Below, in pieces: positions 36,107 through 42,180 of a stretch of 64,000 nucleotides of DNA. The position numbers and the translations under genes were made by a program. The notes under the pieces are model-generated. The model saw only the letters and a program-made list of their open reading frames with translations, searched no databases and was not told the DNA's origin. Origin of the DNA: Parcubacteria group bacterium (GTDB lineage Bacteria > Patescibacteriota > Minisyncoccia > Moranbacterales > UBA11712); the NCBI GenBank assembly GCA_041659685.1, contig JBAZXV010000002.1, positions 120,195-184,194 on the forward strand, given 5' to 3'. Positions within the stretch are counted from its first letter, which is position 1. Every line of letters starts with the position of its first letter.

Positions 36107-37390
36107 ATGCTTGATATTAAATACATCCGGGAAAATAAAGATGCCGTAAAGAAAAATTGCGAGCTTCGCAATATCGCTTGCGATGTGGATAGGATTTTGG
36201 AATTGGATGGAGAAAGAAAAGATCTAATTGAGAAAATTGAAGGATTTAGAAAAGGAAAAAATGAAATAAATGAGCAGATGAAAAATATCGCAAATATCAG
36301 TGCCGAAGAAAAAAAAGAAATCCTGATGAGAGCAAGCGCAATAAAGTTAAACCTTGAACAATTAGAACCGAAATTTGAAGAAATAAATAAGCAATTTCAG
36401 GAGCTTATTTTAGGCATTCCGAATATGACGCATCCCGATTCGCCGATTGGGAAAGACGACGGCGAAAACAAGGAGATTGAAAGATATGGCGAACCGCCGA
36501 AGTTAGATTTTGTGCCAAAGGGGCATGAAGAGCTGATGAACGATTTGGATCTTATTGATTTCGAACGCGGTGCAAAAGTAGCCGGCGCGAAATTTTATTT
36601 TCTCAAAAACGAAGCGGTGCTTTTGGAACAAGCGCTCATCAACTTTGCTTTTCAGAAGCTGATTAAAAAAGGTTTTATTCTGTTTTCTACGCCTGATATA
36701 GCCAAGGATAAGGTGCTTTTTGGCACAGGCTATAATCCCCGCGGTCCGGAACAGCAAATATACTCCATTGAAAATACGGATTTAAGCTTGATAGCCACCT
36801 CCGAAATTCCTATGGGCGGTTATCACATGAATGAAGTTATTGAAGAAAAAGATCTGCCACTGAAATATGCCGCTATTTCCCATTGTTACCGTGTTGAAGC
36901 CGGATCATATGGAAGGCACAGCGCCGGGCTTTATCGGGTGCATCAGTTTACCAAGGTGGAAATGTTTGTCTATGCCGCTCCGGAATTTTCCGAGGCGATA
37001 CATACGGAACTTAAGAATATAGAAGTGGAAATATTCAAAGACCTAGGCGTGCCGTTTCGCGTGGTGGATATATGCACGGGGGATCTTGGCGGCCCGGCAT
37101 GCCGGAAATATGATCTTGAGGCCTGGATGACAAGCCGCAATGATTGGGGAGAAGTGACGTCGACATCTGATACGACCGATTATCAAGCCCGCAGACTTAA
37201 TATTAAAATTAAACGAGAGAACGGAAAAAAGGAATTTTTACACATGCTCAACGGCACAGCAATCGCTATTTCTCGCGCGCTGATTGCCATCATCGAAAAT
37301 GGACAACTTGTCGACGGTTCAGTCATGATTCCGGAAGTTCTCCAGAAATACATGCCAGGCGGACAAAAAGCCATCAAACCCAAAAAATGA
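36107..37390 (+). CDS. serS: Seryl-tRNA synthetase
   Basis: N-terminal coiled-coil arm (MLDIKYIRENKDAVKKN) and class II motifs. 427 aa. Confidence 0.9.
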   Translation: MLDIKYIRENKDAVKKNCELRNIACDVDRILELDGERKDLIEKIEGFRKGKNEINEQMKNIANISAEEKKEILMRASAIKLNLEQLEPKFEEINKQFQELILGIPNMTHPDSPIGKDDGENKEIERYGEPPKLDFVPKGHEELMNDLDLIDFERGAKVAGAKFYFLKNEAVLLEQALINFAFQKLIKKGFILFSTPDIAKDKVLFGTGYNPRGPEQQIYSIENTDLSLIATSEIPMGGYHMNEVIEEKDLPLKYAAISHCYRVEAGSYGRHSAGLYRVHQFTKVEMFVYAAPEFSEAIHTELKNIEVEIFKDLGVPFRVVDICTGDLGGPACRKYDLEAWMTSRNDWGEVTSTSDTTDYQARRLNIKIKRENGKKEFLHMLNGTAIAISRALIAIIENGQLVDGSVMIPEVLQKYMPGGQKAIKPKK

Positions 37391-38115
37391 TTCCTAAAGC
37401 TCGGCTTTAGGAATAAAAAAATGAGGAAAATACAATTTGCCAATGGTGAATATTACCACATCTTTAATAGAGGTGTGGACAAAAGAAAGATATTCTTGGA
37501 AGAAAGGGATTATCAGAGGTTTTTGTTTTCGCTGAATTTACTCAATGACGATGAAGATGGCTTATTGTTGAAATGGCGCGATTACATGAAGTGCAAAGAA
37601 AAATCTTCAAAACCATTCCTAAAGCTCGGCTTTAGGAATAGAAAGTTCCTAGTTGACATTATAGTTTATTGCCTTAATCCGAATCACTATCATTTATTGG
37701 TAAAGCAGAGAATTGAGAAGGGTGTAGAAAGATTTATGCATAAACTTGGGACGAGCTACACAAAATATTTCAATGAAAAATATAAAAGATCGGGAGTTTT
37801 ATTTCAGGGAAAATTCAAAGCGGTTCACATAAAAAATAACGCAAAACTCCTTTATTTATCGGCCTATATTAATCAAAACAGCCAAATCCACGGAATTGCC
37901 AAATCTGATAAATATCCCTGGAGCAGCTACTCGCAATATTCGGCAAATAAAAAATTTTGTTTATGCAGAACGCATGTTATAGTAAGCCAATTCAGAAACG
38001 CGAAGGAGTATAAGGAATTTTGCAAAGAAAATTTGAAAGAAATGATTGAAAGAAAACAGGATGAAAAACTACTCATGGAAGAGTAATTTGCATTCCTAAA
38101 GCCGAGCTTTGGGAA
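37391..38115 (+). mobile_element. IS200/IS605-like Y1 transposase (RAYT) unit flanked by inverted REP-like palindromes
   Basis: REP1 ttcctaaagctcggctttaggaa at 37391-37413. REP3 ttcctaaagccgagctttgggaa at 38093-38115 is the reverse complement of REP1 with one mismatch. An identical REP2 copy lies at 37616-37638 inside the transposase ORF. Confidence 0.7.
37421..38086 (+). CDS. REP-associated tyrosine transposase (IS200-like Y1_Tnp)
   Basis: YHIFNRG N-terminal motif. HUH motif NHYHLLV. A C-terminal SAYINQN region with Tyr. An extended loop between the motifs contains an in-frame REP copy (..KPFLKLGFRNRKF..). Confidence 0.75.
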   Translation: MRKIQFANGEYYHIFNRGVDKRKIFLEERDYQRFLFSLNLLNDDEDGLLLKWRDYMKCKEKSSKPFLKLGFRNRKFLVDIIVYCLNPNHYHLLVKQRIEKGVERFMHKLGTSYTKYFNEKYKRSGVLFQGKFKAVHIKNNAKLLYLSAYINQNSQIHGIAKSDKYPWSSYSQYSANKKFCLCRTHVIVSQFRNAKEYKEFCKENLKEMIERKQDEKLLMEE

Positions 38116-38252
38116 TGATGATTATGAAGGAAAATATTAATTTGTCTCCCATAAAAGAAATGGAACTCCGGACGTCGAGGATTCTTGCTATTCCGGAAGT
38201 GCTTCAGAAATGGATGCCGGGCGGACAGAAAATAGTTAAACCAAAAAAGTAA
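38115..38252 (+). pseudogene. Chimeric gene remnant: aminotransferase 5'-end-like fused to a duplicate of the serS 3' end
   Basis: The 45-aa ORF MIMKENINLSPIKEMELRTSRILAIPEVLQKWMPGGQKIVKPKK has two recognisable parts. Its first part is about 85% identical at nucleotide level to the start of the aminotransferase gene at 40969 (MEDGKINLSPIKEMELRASRI). Its last roughly 65 nt duplicate serS 37327-37390 (IPEVLQKYMPGGQKAIKPKK*). Confidence 0.45.
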
Positions 38253-38341
38253 GTATTTTTTCTGATAACAAAAAGGTCCCAAGGATCAACCCCGGGATTT
38301 TTTTTGGTTGTGCTGTTGGATGTGATTTAAAGTCTTGTCGT

Positions 38342-38746
38342 TTACAGCAGGGCAAAAAGTTTCTTCAGGCTGTCATGCGAAGCCGTATATTTATCGCCAA
38401 GAAATTCATCTTTTGTCACCCATTTATACTCCGTGATATTTTCATCGGCGGGATTTTTTGTTATATCAATATCATAATTATTGGCGGTGCATAAGAACGT
38501 TGTGCAAACCACCTGGTCTCCGTCATGCCTGAAAAACCAGAAAAACCCAACAGGCTTGATAATCTCGACAGAAAGACCAATTTCTTCTCTGACTTCGCGT
38601 GCCAATGTGTCATATGGAGACTCGCCAAAATCAACTTTACCGCCCGGCAGATCCCAGACGGTTCTCCCCGCAAACTCCTGCTTAATCACAAGAAATCTTT
38701 CGCCTTGTTGTATTATGGCTTTAACCGCCGGATGTACGCGATTCAT
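38342..38746 (-). CDS. NUDIX hydrolase
   Basis: Nudix box GGKVDFGESPYDTLAREVREEIGL. 134 aa. Confidence 0.7.
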   Translation of the reverse strand: MNRVHPAVKAIIQQGERFLVIKQEFAGRTVWDLPGGKVDFGESPYDTLAREVREEIGLSVEIIKPVGFFWFFRHDGDQVVCTTFLCTANNYDIDITKNPADENITEYKWVTKDEFLGDKYTASHDSLKKLFALL

Positions 38747-38767
38747 ATTTTAGAAAAAAATTAAAAA

Positions 38768-39625
38768 TTATTGCCACCCGAGCCGTTGGTAAACATCGCT
38801 AATTGATTTATTGAAAGATCCCCGCTGTTCCAATGAAATTGTGGCTGTCATCGCCGCGAATTGTCCGCATTTTTCAAAGTCATCGAATAATTCCAATGAT
38901 CTGATAAACGCAGCCATATAGACATCGCCGGCGCCGGTCGGATCAGCAACTCGTTTCGGAGGATAGGCAGGGATCTCAATAATTCTATCCTTTGAGAAAA
39001 TACGGGAACCTTTGGAAGCGTTCGTTGCCGCAATCATAAAAGTTCCTTTTTCTTGGATTTTCTTAGCCGCTTCTTCCGCTGTGTCTTTTTGGGAGACAAA
39101 CTTGATTTCATTTTCATCCAGAAACAAATAGTCAATATATTGCGCGGCATTCATCAGATTTTCCGGATGTTTCTGAATAAATTTATTTCCAATTCCATAG
39201 GTGAACATCCCAAAATTTCCATGAACAATTTTTTTTCCAAGATTTTTCTTTATTGCGGTAAATAATTCCAAAGGGATGTTATCATGAAAGAGAGGCGAGA
39301 GGACAATATAATCAAAGGATTTCAGTTTGGACAATAACTCATCTGTTGGATGGATGATATTCGGGCTATAATCAATTTCGATTGATCGGCATACATCCGG
39401 ATTGTCGCTGGTGTATATCCTTTCGAATTCCAGTGTTTTTTGGACCGGAATATGTTCAACTGTAACGTCTGTTAAGTTCTTTCTGAACCATTTGTCGTCC
39501 CGGGAAGCATAAGTGACAAAAACCGTTGTCTCCGCTCCAAGACGGGCAAAAACATTTCCCGCATAATATGGAATACCCCCGACTTGAATCTCGGTATTCT
39601 TATCAACAGTGACGCGGTCTTTCAC
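38768..39625 (-). CDS. PfkB-family carbohydrate/nucleoside kinase (ribokinase-like)
   Basis: C-terminal DPTGAGDVYMAAF anion-hole/ATP motif. 285 aa. Confidence 0.75.
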   Translation of the reverse strand: MKDRVTVDKNTEIQVGGIPYYAGNVFARLGAETTVFVTYASRDDKWFRKNLTDVTVEHIPVQKTLEFERIYTSDNPDVCRSIEIDYSPNIIHPTDELLSKLKSFDYIVLSPLFHDNIPLELFTAIKKNLGKKIVHGNFGMFTYGIGNKFIQKHPENLMNAAQYIDYLFLDENEIKFVSQKDTAEEAAKKIQEKGTFMIAATNASKGSRIFSKDRIIEIPAYPPKRVADPTGAGDVYMAAFIRSLELFDDFEKCGQFAAMTATISLEQRGSFNKSISDVYQRLGWQ

Positions 39626-39664
39626 GATTGGACCAAGAATGGCGACTTTCGTAGCAATTGATAA

Positions 39665-40813
39665 TTACGAATTATTCCCCCGGTTTTTTTTATTGGCTAT
39701 TTGTTGGGCGCCCGGTGCGGCAGGGAAGCTTATCTCTTTGGGATCATTGGGTTGATCCGGAAGACATGATATGAAATGTTTTCTTCCGTTTTCATCTTTC
39801 AATATTCTGAATCCGATAATCTTTCCTTTTTCCGCGCCGATTCTGTTAAATTCTTTATTCAGGAAATAAATCAGCTGGTTCTCGTGGCTGAAACCCAAAA
39901 CGCGGATTCTTTTATGCCGGGGATGGTCGGCTTCGTAGGCGTCTATTGCATCATCATATCTTTCCATGAGATAAAGAGTATTGCGAAAATTTTTCTCGTA
40001 CATATCCTTCACGGACGCAAAATGCGGAATAATATTACTGTCCGAACTCTGCCGGGCCTTATGTTCGTCAAACAATCTTTGCAATTGTTCAGAATATTCC
40101 AGGAAATTGGCGCCCCAACTGCCTTTATTATCCGCCTCGATTATTTTTCGAGCTTCAGCCCATAATTCCTTGTATCCATCCGGTATTTTTTCGAGATATT
40201 TTTTCTGGACTTTATTCATGTAATTATCCTGATGGAAAATGAATTCAACAAACATTTGTTTGATGTTATCAAGCGACAACGGTCCGAGTGTGCGGATCTC
40301 GTTTCCGCCTTGCCTTTCGAACAATTCTTTTGTCACCTGGCCGCGGCTTTGATGAAATTCCTTTTTTGCTTGATTCAATTTTTCGAATTCCTCCTGACTG
40401 AGAAAATTGACGTTGCCGTGATCATCGCCGGCAATAATTTTAACAGTAAATCCTTTTTCTTTCGCGACTTCGAGATAAATCGCCGCTGTTTGTCTCGAAC
40501 GGGTCAGAGCGGATGACGCAATTGCTATTTCATCGGTGTTTGGATTGAAATGATTAAAAAATTCATTAGCCATTTCGTATGCGTGCTCCCTTCCTTTTAC
40601 CGATAAATCTTCCGGCGGTTGGGCTAGTTTTTCGAATAATTGCAAAGGCTCCGAACTTCTCGGAATCATCTCATTTTGCGAATAGATGGCGTCATCGTGC
40701 CGTCCTATGCCGTATCGTAATTTGGCGTACGAAGCTTCTTCTCTTATTCGTTCCGGAGTGATGGTTTTGAGTTCATTTTCTCCGGAAACATGTTTATCAT
40801 TAAATCTTTCCAT
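39665..40813 (-). CDS. Hypothetical protein (382 aa)
   Basis: Long ORF with no overlapping alternative and coding-like composition. No family confidently recognised. A GRHDDAIY segment could be a degenerate histidine-phosphatase RHG motif, but this is weak. Confidence 0.45.
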   Translation of the reverse strand: MERFNDKHVSGENELKTITPERIREEASYAKLRYGIGRHDDAIYSQNEMIPRSSEPLQLFEKLAQPPEDLSVKGREHAYEMANEFFNHFNPNTDEIAIASSALTRSRQTAAIYLEVAKEKGFTVKIIAGDDHGNVNFLSQEEFEKLNQAKKEFHQSRGQVTKELFERQGGNEIRTLGPLSLDNIKQMFVEFIFHQDNYMNKVQKKYLEKIPDGYKELWAEARKIIEADNKGSWGANFLEYSEQLQRLFDEHKARQSSDSNIIPHFASVKDMYEKNFRNTLYLMERYDDAIDAYEADHPRHKRIRVLGFSHENQLIYFLNKEFNRIGAEKGKIIGFRILKDENGRKHFISCLPDQPNDPKEISFPAAPGAQQIANKKNRGNNS

Positions 40814-40968
40814 AATATTTGATATAAATTAAAAGCTATACAGTATAAACAATCTTTATTTCAATAATTGACTCATTGGTGGAAAACCGCTAAAATTCCT
40901 TTGTATTTAACTTGTATTGATTATAACAGCCCTTCTTAACCACTGGCAAATCAGCCTTAAATCATGAT

Positions 40969-42180
40969 ATGGAAGACGGAAAAATAAATCTATCCCCCAT
41001 AAAGGAAATGGAGCTCCGGGCGTCGAGGATTTCCGGAGTTATTTCGCTGGCTCAAGGCGTGCCGTCTTTTGACACTCCGGAACCGATAAAGAGGGCGGCC
41101 ATCGAAGCTATTGAGAAGGGGAAGGTGGCCAGATATTCTCTCGCTCCCGGGACGCTTGAGTTTCGGGAATCAATTGCCCAGAGCCTGGAACGGGAAAATA
41201 AATATTTCGACTTTGAAGACGAGATTATCGCCACTGCCGGATCAATCGAAGCCATAACGGCGACAATGCTGGCGATCCTCACGCCGGGGGATGAAGTGCT
41301 TATCCCGGATCCGACCTATACGTCATACCAGCCCGCTATAAAAGTGGCGCGCGGGGTTCCTGTTTTCGTTCCGCTCGACGAAAAAAGGCACTGGGCGTTT
41401 GATATTGATAAATTTGAGAAACTTATTACTCCCCGCACAAAAGCCTTTCTTTTTTGCAATCCAAATAATCCGACCGGAACGATATTCAGCCGAAACCAGC
41501 TTCATGCGCTGGCGCAAATCGCCATTAAACACAACATATACATCCTCAGCGACGAAGTGTACAAGGATTTTGTTTTTGACTCGGAAGAGAGGCTTTACTC
41601 GCTTGCGGAGCTTCGCGGCATCCGCGACCGGCTTATCTATATCTTTTCTTTTTCTAAGGCTTATGCCATGACGGGGTGGAGAATCGCATATCTTGCGACT
41701 CATCAGGATCTGGCGAGAAAAATTCTGGCAGTTCATGACGCTCTTGTCACCTGCGCGCCGGTAGTTTCTCAATTTGCCGCCATGGGGGCGCTTGAAATGG
41801 CCAGAGAAGATGTTTCTTATTTTAAGGAATATTTTAAAAAAAGGAGGGATTTAACGTGCAAAAGGCTTGATAAATTGAGTCATGTTTTCGAATATCAAAA
41901 ACCAGACAGCGCCTATTTCGTTTTTCCGAAAATAAAGGATGATTTTCTTAAAAAATTTGCATCCGGCATGCCTGTGGCGAATCGCAAAGAAACCAGGGAA
42001 AGCGGCGGCTCGTGGCAGCTTGCCATAGAATTGCTGGAAAAGGCCAAGGTTGCCGTCGTTCCGGGGGCGGCATTCGGTCCAAGCGGAGAAAATCACATTC
42101 GAATGTGCTTTGGGAGATCGGAAGAAGACATAAATTTGGCCTTTGACAGGATGGAAAATTTTTTCGACAGTCCGGCCTAA
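40969..42180 (+). CDS. Class I/II PLP-dependent aminotransferase (aspartate aminotransferase-like)
   Basis: PLP-lysine motif SFSKAYAMTGWRIAY and an N-terminal GVISLAQGVPSFDTP segment. 403 aa. Confidence 0.85.
   Translation: MEDGKINLSPIKEMELRASRISGVISLAQGVPSFDTPEPIKRAAIEAIEKGKVARYSLAPGTLEFRESIAQSLERENKYFDFEDEIIATAGSIEAITATMLAILTPGDEVLIPDPTYTSYQPAIKVARGVPVFVPLDEKRHWAFDIDKFEKLITPRTKAFLFCNPNNPTGTIFSRNQLHALAQIAIKHNIYILSDEVYKDFVFDSEERLYSLAELRGIRDRLIYIFSFSKAYAMTGWRIAYLATHQDLARKILAVHDALVTCAPVVSQFAAMGALEMAREDVSYFKEYFKKRRDLTCKRLDKLSHVFEYQKPDSAYFVFPKIKDDFLKKFASGMPVANRKETRESGGSWQLAIELLEKAKVAVVPGAAFGPSGENHIRMCFGRSEEDINLAFDRMENFFDSPA

Follow-up and report, generated by a model that had tools for sequence, protein, structure and literature searches.

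A stretch of 64,000 nucleotides (nt) of contig JBAZXV010000002.1 (Parcubacteria group bacterium, assembly GCA_041659685.1, positions 120,195 to 184,194 of the forward strand), referred to here as the window, harbours a Y1 HUH gene of the REP-associated tyrosine transposase (RAYT) or IS200-like kind next to the seryl-tRNA synthetase gene serS. A single hairpin sequence, similar to the repetitive extragenic palindromes (REPs) that accompany RAYT genes, is present upstream of the gene, downstream of it, and in frame within its open reading frame (ORF). The internal hairpin is a hallmark of the whole family, located at fixed sites, and not a one-off insertion into this gene. Two separate things probably adjoin at the locus, namely a unit similar to a REPtron with a cognate hairpin in its own frame, and the scar of an unrelated insertion event.

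The 23-mer TTCCTAAAGCTCGGCTTTAGGAA occurs exactly at 37391-37413 and 37616-37638, and inverted at 38093-38115. This agrees with the original prediction, made from the sequence alone, of one palindrome placed after serS, in the transposase frame and, inverted, past the transposase, with the correction that the inverted copy carries 1 mismatch. The true palindrome is 25 nt long (ATTCC...GGAAT). The 5′ cognate hairpin (37390..37414) reads ATTCCTAAAG-CTCGG-CTTTAGGAAT, is perfect, and takes as its first base the last base of the serS stop codon. The internal copy (37615..37639), located at what we call site A and recognised by sequence search and by folding, shows the same loop orientation as the 5′ copy and encodes residues 65-73, PFLKLGFRN, between helix 48-58 and strand 78-85. 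The 3′ cognate hairpin (38092..38116) is located 6 nt past the RAYT stop codon and has a flipped loop (CCGAG) and one T.G mismatch. All three copies are predicted to form single-stranded DNA hairpins, with dG of -9.3 to -9.5 kcal/mol and z of -5.2 to -6.0. No further copy of the 23-mer at <=3 mismatches was found in the window, where 0 matches are expected by chance. The guide tetranucleotide GT[AG]G, found at the 5′ foot of canonical REPs, was searched as well, and neither GTAG nor GTGG was found beside any of the three copies, the foot of the hairpin being (A)TTCC.

The exact 23-mer is also present in 18 metagenome stretches, 13 of which have no RAYT gene nearby. The solo copies in these 13 stretches are mostly extragenic, often located just past stop codons, and sometimes doubled. 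Dispersed copies of the hairpin therefore exist in related organisms, at low density. The label REP, used for the palindrome in the original prediction, does not hold in the strict sense for this window, as no further copy occurs in the 64 kb, although related metagenome contigs do contain solo extragenic copies. Scans of the whole window with Rfam (gathering thresholds) and for tRNA genes gave no matches; the hairpins are thus not explained by a known RNA family, and there is no tRNA-type integration site. A weak tblastn similarity between the serS tail with the 5′ hairpin and RAYT residues 55-76 (E 0.014) is explained by the common hairpin and by lysine-rich flanks.

The gene (37421..38086, plus strand) encodes a protein of 221 amino acids (aa). 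It matches Pfam PF01797 Y1_Tnp with 37.7 bits (cut-off 23), a match that spans residues 75-153 only. Residues N88-H89-Y-H91, Y149 and N153 are invariant in 116 homologues. The HUH motif corresponds to H89-Y-H91, and Y149, within YINQN, is the candidate for the catalytic tyrosine. The AlphaFold (AF2) model built from 116 sequences reached a predicted local distance difference test score (pLDDT) of 86.6, a confident fold for a transposase that the original prediction had proposed to check together with its supposed insert. The order of elements in the model is beta1-alphaA-alphaB-beta2-beta3(HUH)-alphaC-beta4-alphaD(Tyr), followed by C-terminal helices, and the HUH motif opens strand 90-96 while the tyrosine lies within helix 140-151. 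Residues 61-70, with a mean pLDDT of 57, are the least confident part. The top Foldseek match in the PDB is 4ER8 (E 3.7e-6), in which E. coli TnpA_REP is in complex with a REP hairpin, and the next matches are 2A6M, 2A6O and 2XM3, the TnpA proteins of IS608 and ISDra2. A profile search of the PDB sequences with the RAYT protein gave no match, and the fold comparison alone succeeded. Based on the profile match, the invariant motifs and the fold match to 4ER8, the protein is a divergent RAYT-like Y1 HUH enzyme. The earlier description of a RAYT-like gene with inverted flanking cognate hairpins and a third copy in frame is thereby supported by profile, motifs, fold and sequence search. The NCBIfam model REP_Tyr_transpos (NF047646) scored 27.6 bits against a cut-off of 80, and the Y motif, Y[IV]NxN[SNC], does not correspond to the class-2 motif Y-x3-N-P, as it has no P. 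The motifs NHYH, FQ and Y[IV]NxN fit none of the subclasses in the tabulation of Quentin 2018 (PMC6006769).

The homologue search gave 3121 matches, nearly all of about 220 aa, and the named sources of homologues are Moranbacteria, Parcubacteria or Patescibacteria. Some contigs with family members (L001, L004, L012, L014, L016, L036, L052 and others) are labelled Bdellovibrionales, Gammaproteobacteria, Saccharibacteria or Bathyarchaeia, which reflects either mis-binning in co-assemblies or a spread beyond Parcubacteria-type lineages. The approximately 120 best homologues have 216-235 aa, all with the same spacing, and the loop described at first as enlarged is shared by them and not peculiar to this gene. 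The window possesses one RAYT copy, and other genomes harbour two to four divergent paralogues, each with its own hairpin. Single genomes possess up to four paralogues that are about 45-50% identical, each with its own hairpin sequence, as in LBYD01 (L003, L007, L037, L059). Two paralogues with different hairpins, 2-5 kb apart, are present in L017 (4365-5027, 6964-7635) and L071 (738-1433, 6393-7055).

The family was sampled from 79 genomic loci with homologues at 44-58% identity and from five close relatives, and 84 complete homologous genes of Patescibacteria were compared. For a cognate test, the hairpin was picked from the flanks only and then sought in the ORF of the same gene at <=3 mismatches. 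A flank hairpin is present in 76 of the 84 genes and recurs within the gene's own ORF in 62 out of the 76 (82%), half of them exactly, whereas 3.5% of 6308 non-cognate combinations of flank and ORF match. The same hairpin was found in both flanks of 57 out of 84 genes, and the full triad of upstream, internal and downstream copies in 51 genes. In most loci the copies are located 30-45 nt 5′ of the ATG, within the ORF, and a few nt past the stop codon.

Internal copies belong to two sites. Site A, with 54 internal copies, extends from +158 to +220 and corresponds to the loop between alphaB and beta2, before the HUH motif. Site B, with 8 internal copies, extends from +435 to +471, right behind a conserved histidine that follows the helix of the catalytic tyrosine. 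Some genes have both sites occupied. In 69 of the 84 genes, a perfect hairpin with 7 bp or more has its centre in site A or B; about 0.1 per gene would be expected from the remainder of the ORFs. The internal copy, taken in the original prediction for an insertion into the loop of this one gene, is a family-wide feature at a fixed position.

The internal hairpin changes together with its flanking copies. Between loci, 62% of the stem positions differ, against only 2-2.5% among the three copies of one locus. Internal and upstream base pairs agree in 341 of 357 cases (136±13 under permutation of loci), a figure reached partly by construction, since the triads were chosen for matching, so that the comparison of cognate and non-cognate combinations is the unbiased test. 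Each of the 7 stem positions shows three to four Watson-Crick pair types. The encoded peptide tracks the DNA, as in FLKLGFRN, FLKRSFRK and FLISEIRK.

This variation bears on a protein-level explanation, according to which the FLKxxFRK peptide is selected and the palindrome, together with its flanking look-alikes, arises as a by-product. F66 is indeed nearly invariant, and a consensus FLKL[SG]FRKR is found among Moranbacteria-type homologues. Nonetheless, unrelated peptides occupy the same site in other subclades, each matching its own flank hairpins, disorder is predicted for the region, conservation extends to third codon positions, and the non-coding flank copies are beyond the reach of selection on a peptide. 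The covariation contradicts this explanation, which we regard as very improbable.

Seven of the eight genes without a flank hairpin retain an internal hairpin or a long palindrome, so the internal copy could be the core of the system and not a passenger. In several genes site A is occupied by a REPIN-like double hairpin, an in-frame perfect palindrome of 38-50 nt that leaves the protein length unchanged. Such palindromes were found in L010 (2074-2123), L011 (6175-6222), L019, L020, L021, L069, L070 and L073, and several of the genes with a double palindrome at site A have no flank hairpin. In 24 loci the loop of the downstream copy is inverted relative to that of the upstream copy, in 13 it is direct, and either orientation occurs in the internal copy. 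Among the downstream copies of the 51 triads, including the window copy at 38092-38116, the non-Watson-Crick pairs on the sense strand comprise 5 G.T and 0 A.C, compared with 0 and 2 in the upstream copies and 3 and 3 in the internal copies. These numbers, too small for more, weakly hint that the downstream copy may matter as sense-strand RNA or top-strand DNA.

Conservation at the nucleotide level was compared among four full-length orthologues (window, L081, L082, L084), which show 77-84% nucleotide identity in a gap-free alignment. The twelve best 25-nt windows of this alignment all overlap the internal hairpin, with 24-25 of 25 columns unchanged. Within the internal hairpin, 8 out of 9 third codon positions show no variation, whereas 33% are invariant gene-wide. 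The flank copies are equally conserved except for the loop of the upstream copy, which reads CTCGG in the window but is flipped to CCGAG in L082. Conservation of synonymous sites in a loop of low pLDDT points to maintenance at the level of the nucleic acid.

The hairpins also overlap the ends and starts of neighbouring genes. A Shine-Dalgarno-like AGGA motif lies in the 3′ arm of the 5′ hairpin, 8 nt upstream of the RAYT ATG. Similarly, in the related contigs L081 and L084 the ATG of an aminotransferase gene is located about 10 nt past the 3′ hairpin, and AGGA again comes from the 3′ arm. The serS stop codon abuts the 5′ arm in the window and falls inside it in L080, L081 and L084. In these three relatives the serS frame enters the 5′ hairpin and ends at a TAA or TAG within it (L080 3320-3360, L081 935-965, L084 150-185), so that the hairpin supplies the last serS residues and the stop codon. 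The C-termini of serS differ among relatives, with ...KPKK, ...NMEVIRNIS and ...IIPKARL. Since the serS stop and the AGGA motifs sit at or in hairpin arms, the hairpins of this subclade may plausibly damp translation of the surrounding genes.

Regarding function, the REPtron-like unit would represent a Patescibacteria-specific clade of Y1 HUH single-strand DNA endonucleases. By analogy with TnpA_REP, the enzyme would bind its own hairpin as extruded or single-stranded DNA, and its fold and the E. coli enzyme suggest that it probably nicks and rejoins the hairpin. All three copies may be substrates or operators of the same protein, in which case they would be matched to the specificity of the protein and to each other. 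The internal copy would survive because the loop tolerates any peptide. A self-referential system, in which the in-frame hairpin is a selected cis element, DNA or RNA, recognised by its own enzyme, is conceivable, if less likely than not. If it exists, the protein could throttle or nick its own gene, the hairpin being an autoregulatory operator or a self-limiting cut site, and shifts in hairpin specificity would also need to be encoded in the gene. The suggestion in the original prediction that the internal copy is regulatory, or a record of self-targeting, fits the covariation with the flanks and the conservation of synonymous sites, as a possibility only.

Several observations weigh against such a functional reading. 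Binding and cleavage of the hairpin by this clade are inferred from the fold and from E. coli TnpA_REP. With no further hairpin copy in the 64 kb of the window, mobilisation is not evident here. The variable orientation of the loop fits poorly with a strictly strand-specific mechanism. The Shine-Dalgarno motif within the hairpin is a property of the TCCTAAAG subclade only and not of other stems. Moreover, the conservation of the internal copy could stem from repeated overwriting and not from selection. On balance, selection on the internal copy itself has a reasonable chance of being real, if one short of even, and we find it possible, with some doubt, that the copy is merely refreshed by enzyme-mediated or recombinational overwriting.

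A passenger explanation follows from this last point, in which a functionless REP was once inserted in a permissive loop and has since been matched to the flanks by overwriting, through the enzyme or short-patch recombination, from nearby copies or a genomic REP consensus. In agreement with it, the internal hairpin belongs to a surface loop modelled with low confidence, the peptide changes freely along with the DNA, and loops flip between close relatives (CTCGG in the window, CCGAG in L082), which is expected from template switching at a palindrome or replacement of copies. In addition, Quentin 2018 (PMC6006769) took the in-frame REPs of subclass 2.4 RAYTs as tolerated insertions. However, position and loop length are fixed across very divergent genes, with no length polymorphism of presence and absence, and seven of the eight genes without a flank hairpin keep the internal one or a long palindrome. 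The conservation was also found between genomes, for which overwriting within a genome is insufficient unless a selected pool of copies exists. We consider the passenger explanation unlikely, though one to be taken seriously.

REPtrons are TnpA_REP/RAYT genes flanked by cognate REPs, such as E. coli yafM, with the structure PDB 4ER8 (Nunvar 2010; Bertels & Rainey 2011; Ton-Hoang 2012; Corneloup 2021, PMC8266576). Similar to REPtrons, the unit described here possesses a Y1 HUH fold with 4ER8 as top match, a gene bracketed by locus-specific hairpin copies (inverted in this window), and an own hairpin family for each paralogue. It also shares with them a syntenic locus in relatives at low copy number, which is the pattern of a domesticated and not of an insertion sequence (IS)-like element, and solo extragenic copies past stop codons in related contigs. 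Unlike in REPtrons, the hairpin of the window has no GT[AG]G foot, the Y motif Y[IV]NxN is without the class-2 'NP', FQ replaces WQ/WE, the protein is 221 aa long with a long C-terminal helix, and the REP_Tyr_transpos score is below the cut-off. High-copy dispersal was not seen within the 64 kb window, and the orientation of the flanks is not always inverted across the Patescibacteria family.

A further comparison is with subclass 2.4 (Bertels group 4) RAYTs, for which REPs in frame inside tnpA_REP are described by Quentin, Siguier, Chandler and Fichant in 2018 (PMC6006769), who view them as tolerated in a peripheral loop. The two groups have in common cognate REP copies inside an unbroken enzyme frame, in peripheral loops, and a small insertion at the end of alphaB in subclass 2.4, as that paper presents it, corresponds topologically to site A. 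Unlike the variable-length REP insertions between HuH and Y given there for subclass 2.4, the sites found here are two, fixed and of constant length, before HuH and after the Y helix. The motifs differ too, with NHYH, FQ and Y[IV]NxN here and NH[IFV]H, WQ and YIxNNP in the subclass 2.4 entry of that source, and the clade described here belongs to Patescibacteria. Covariation with the flanks and conservation of synonymous sites were found here and are not reported in the sections on subclass 2.4 of PMC6006769.

The unit also resembles the IS200/IS605 elements (IS608, ISDra2, IS200), as Y1_Tnp scores above threshold and the enzyme of these elements recognises hairpins adjoining its gene. The AGGA inside the 5′ hairpin here is comparable to the ribosome-binding site of IS200, which an RNA stem-loop sequesters. 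Unlike in IS200/IS605, there is no Y-x3-Q motif, no set of identical copies in the window and no tnpB beside the gene; moreover, the flank hairpins of the window are inverted and not both on one strand, and the position is orthologous in relatives. Another parallel comes from rolling-circle replication, since gene A of phiX174 (HUH-type) and repC of pT181 (a related tyrosine-nicking Rep) have the nick site inside their own coding sequence, as the RAYT gene has its cognate hairpin in frame. Unlike in these Rep genes, nothing suggests a replicon, and the locus is chromosomal and syntenic, with flanking copies too.

In the literature search, whose coverage was incomplete, no description of this Patescibacteria clade or of covarying internal hairpins at fixed sites was found. 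The sole precedent in that search is subclass 2.4 (PMC6006769). REPtrons and RAYTs are thus already known, as are in-frame REPs in RAYT genes, from what Quentin 2018 reports on that subclass. What is new is the Patescibacteria-wide clade, the fixed sites, the covariation with the flanks, the conservation of synonymous sites, and the persistence without flank copies.

This is of interest as a whole clade, in the tiny genomes of the Candidate Phyla Radiation, keeps the presumed target of an enzyme inside the reading frame of that enzyme. RAYTs are the best-known domesticated bacterial transposases. The hairpin can be recoded without changing the protein (e.g. TTCCTAAAGCTCGGCTTTAGGAA versus the synonymous, non-palindromic TTTTTGAAATTAGGTTTCCGTAA), which separates nucleic-acid from protein function. 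The covariation supplies dozens of natural pairs of enzyme and hairpin specificity (e.g. TCCTAAAG, CTTGGAAAC, GACGAGAG), useful for studies of HUH recognition or for orthogonal HUH tags. The family also shows, in a compact operon, hairpins that at the same time provide the stop codon and the ribosome-binding site. The insertion scar beside the unit is of local interest only, recording the entry of a three-gene block into a conserved gene row.

That scar begins in a mosaic ORF of 45 codons on the plus strand, which ends at 38252 and consists of an aminotransferase head followed by a serS tail. The relic head comprises 20 codons (38124..38183), recognised by its repeat match and located as in L081 and L084. 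It is followed by CTTGCT (38184..38189), the junction of the proposed illegitimate join, read directly and of uncertain origin, and by a second serS tail of 20 codons plus TAA (38190..38252), the left end of the inserted block. The resident serS (36107..37390, plus strand; Pfam Seryl_tRNA_N and tRNA-synt_2b) carries the first copy of the tail at 37328-37390, its last 59-63 nt by repeat comparison, and the functional class I/II aminotransferase gene (40969..42180, plus strand) carries the head repeat at 40980-41031. The head copies (38132-38183 and 40980-41031) are 85% identical over 52 nt, and the tail copies (38190-38248 and 37328-37386) 80% over 59 nt. The mosaic of aminotransferase head and serS tail, as read in the original prediction, is therefore real, although the identity of about 85% given for the serS tail was slightly high. 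At the protein level the repeats read INLSPIKEMELR[T/A]SRI for the head and IPEVLQK[W/Y]MPGGQK[IV/AI]KPKK for the tail. Synonymous differences between the copies outnumber non-synonymous ones by 7 to 4 and by 5 to 1. The differences thus accumulated while both copies were functional genes, and a segment imported from a related lineage is favoured over a local duplicate in decay.

Downstream of the mosaic ORF, a weak terminator-like and possibly bidirectional stem (38277..38297), with a fold no better than that of shuffled sequences, is located between an A-run and a T-run and would act for both the imported serS tail and the NUDIX gene. The cargo of the block comprises this NUDIX gene (38342-38746), a PfkB kinase gene (38768-39625), and a gene for a 382-aa histidine-phosphatase-like protein (39665-40813). 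All three are encoded on the minus strand, amid the plus-strand genes lysS, serS, RAYT, aminotransferase and mur. The intergenic region 40814..40968, now 5′ of the aminotransferase gene, has divergent promoter-like sites, identified by consensus matches only.

In five related contigs (L080-L084) the hairpin and the RAYT gene, encoding proteins 75-86% identical to that of the window, follow directly after serS. In L080, lysS is located upstream, and the aminotransferase and mur genes downstream beyond a scaffold gap, whereas L082 and L083 end at the 3′ hairpin. The block of NUDIX, PfkB and 382-aa genes was not seen in L080-L084. The relic aminotransferase head sits exactly at the ancestral start position, about 10 nt past the 3′ hairpin, in comparison with L081 and L084. 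As serS, hairpin and RAYT stand together in all five related contigs, with the aminotransferase next wherever the contig reaches, gene order suggests that RAYT is ancestral at the locus and that the inserted piece is the downstream block of about 2.8 kb. The orthologous loci, put forward in the original prediction as a check for a lineage-specific RAYT insertion, thus speak for a shared, ancestral gene. The RAYT protein shows 86% aa identity to that of L080, above the values for lysS (83%), aminotransferase (80%), serS (73%) and mur (71%).

The first explanation offered for the duplicated serS tail was that the RAYT/REP unit was itself inserted at the 3′ end of serS, carrying or regenerating the serS terminus. 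The unit does lie between direct repeats of the serS tail (80% over 59 nt), and the GC content of RAYT, 34-37%, is below the 41-46% of its neighbours (window 37200-38400). The arrangement in the five relatives, with the hairpin and RAYT gene directly after serS and the aminotransferase next where read further, contradicts a rebuilding of the serS 3′ end by the unit. Furthermore, an aminotransferase head precedes the second serS tail in a fusion, three minus-strand genes missing from the relatives come after it, and elements of the IS200/RAYT type make no target duplications. This explanation has little left in its favour.

An assembly artefact, with two strains joined as a chimera or with a repeat collapsed, is scarcely credible. 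The source is a metagenome-assembled contig, and a contig of the Logan assembly breaks exactly at the 5′ hairpin, so that the repeat troubles assemblers. However, this independent assembly of SRR18595301 (L108, 4088 nt) is 100% identical to window positions 37391-41478, across the junction and the block and with the mosaic ORF included, which makes an artefact of a single assembler unlikely and speaks against the assembly error considered at first for this locus. Nor is there a long shared k-mer at the junction that could mislead a de Bruijn assembler. Position 1 of L108 is window position 37391, the first base of the 23-mer, and the scaffold gap of L080 lies inside its RAYT gene. Evidently the repeated hairpin breaks short-read assemblies, and such loci may be hidden in metagenome-assembled genomes.

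We propose that the ancestral order was lysS-serS-hairpin-RAYT-hairpin-aminotransferase-mur. A segment of about 2.8 kb, containing a serS tail, terminator, the NUDIX, PfkB and 382-aa genes and an aminotransferase head, would have been joined illegitimately into codon 21 or so of the resident aminotransferase gene. The donor was most likely a related lineage with the block between serS and aminotransferase. The left join would be illegitimate and the right side resolved by homology, an event that would have left the in-frame fusion of aminotransferase head and serS tail. The new material spans 38184/38190 to about 40968 and beyond. Hairpins are absent from the junctions, so RAYT is not implicated in the insertion of the block.

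The proposed event resembles homology-facilitated illegitimate recombination, whose insertion scars were reportedly described by de Vries & Wackernagel in 2002. One end is illegitimate (aminotransferase head to serS tail) and the other presumably homologous, and foreign cargo sits between partial duplicates of resident genes, although here the mechanism is read from the scar alone. Short patches in which the serS tail resembles the aminotransferase head (ATTCCGGA; GTCGA) were weighed as microhomology for the join and are not claimed here, being out of register with the junction.

The import from a related lineage competes with an intragenomic origin, in which the stretch from serS tail to aminotransferase head was duplicated in tandem and the second RAYT was later replaced by the NUDIX-PfkB-382aa block. 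A head-tail junction is the classical signature of a tandem duplication, and the GC content of the block is the same as that of the genome. Against this, at least two events are needed, no trace of a second hairpin or RAYT is present, and a repeat divergence of 15-20%, mostly synonymous, is unexpected for a duplicate decaying in situ. An intragenomic origin therefore appears improbable. Some results count against import too. A donor with the order serS-NUDIX-PfkB-382aa-aminotransferase was not found among the contigs with 382-aa homologues. No recombination breakpoint was seen when identity to the relatives was followed along serS, RAYT, aminotransferase and mur in sliding profiles, and the inserted block does not stand out in the GC profile. 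Nor could the native copy be told by comparing the short repeats of tail and head with relatives, as pairwise counts were about equal. With no donor, breakpoint or GC anomaly, the case for the polarity of the event and for its source is one of synteny and parsimony.

Scanning metagenomes with the 382-aa protein gave no relative. Homologues with 53-66% identity occur in other neighbourhoods, including L085-L087 with the 382aa-PfkB pair, while in L088 and L089 serS is located 5 kb from the 382-aa homologue in a different arrangement. The adjacent pair of 382-aa and PfkB genes is conserved amid unrelated neighbours (L085 5529-7543, L086 3561-5564, L087 1991-4006, window 38768-40813), and may be a small functional module, possibly of sugar-phosphate metabolism. 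In L081, the serS protein (1-948) shows only about 39% identity to that of the window (36107-37390), while the adjoining RAYT and aminotransferase reach 75% and 82%, suggesting a replacement of serS itself in one lineage at the locus.

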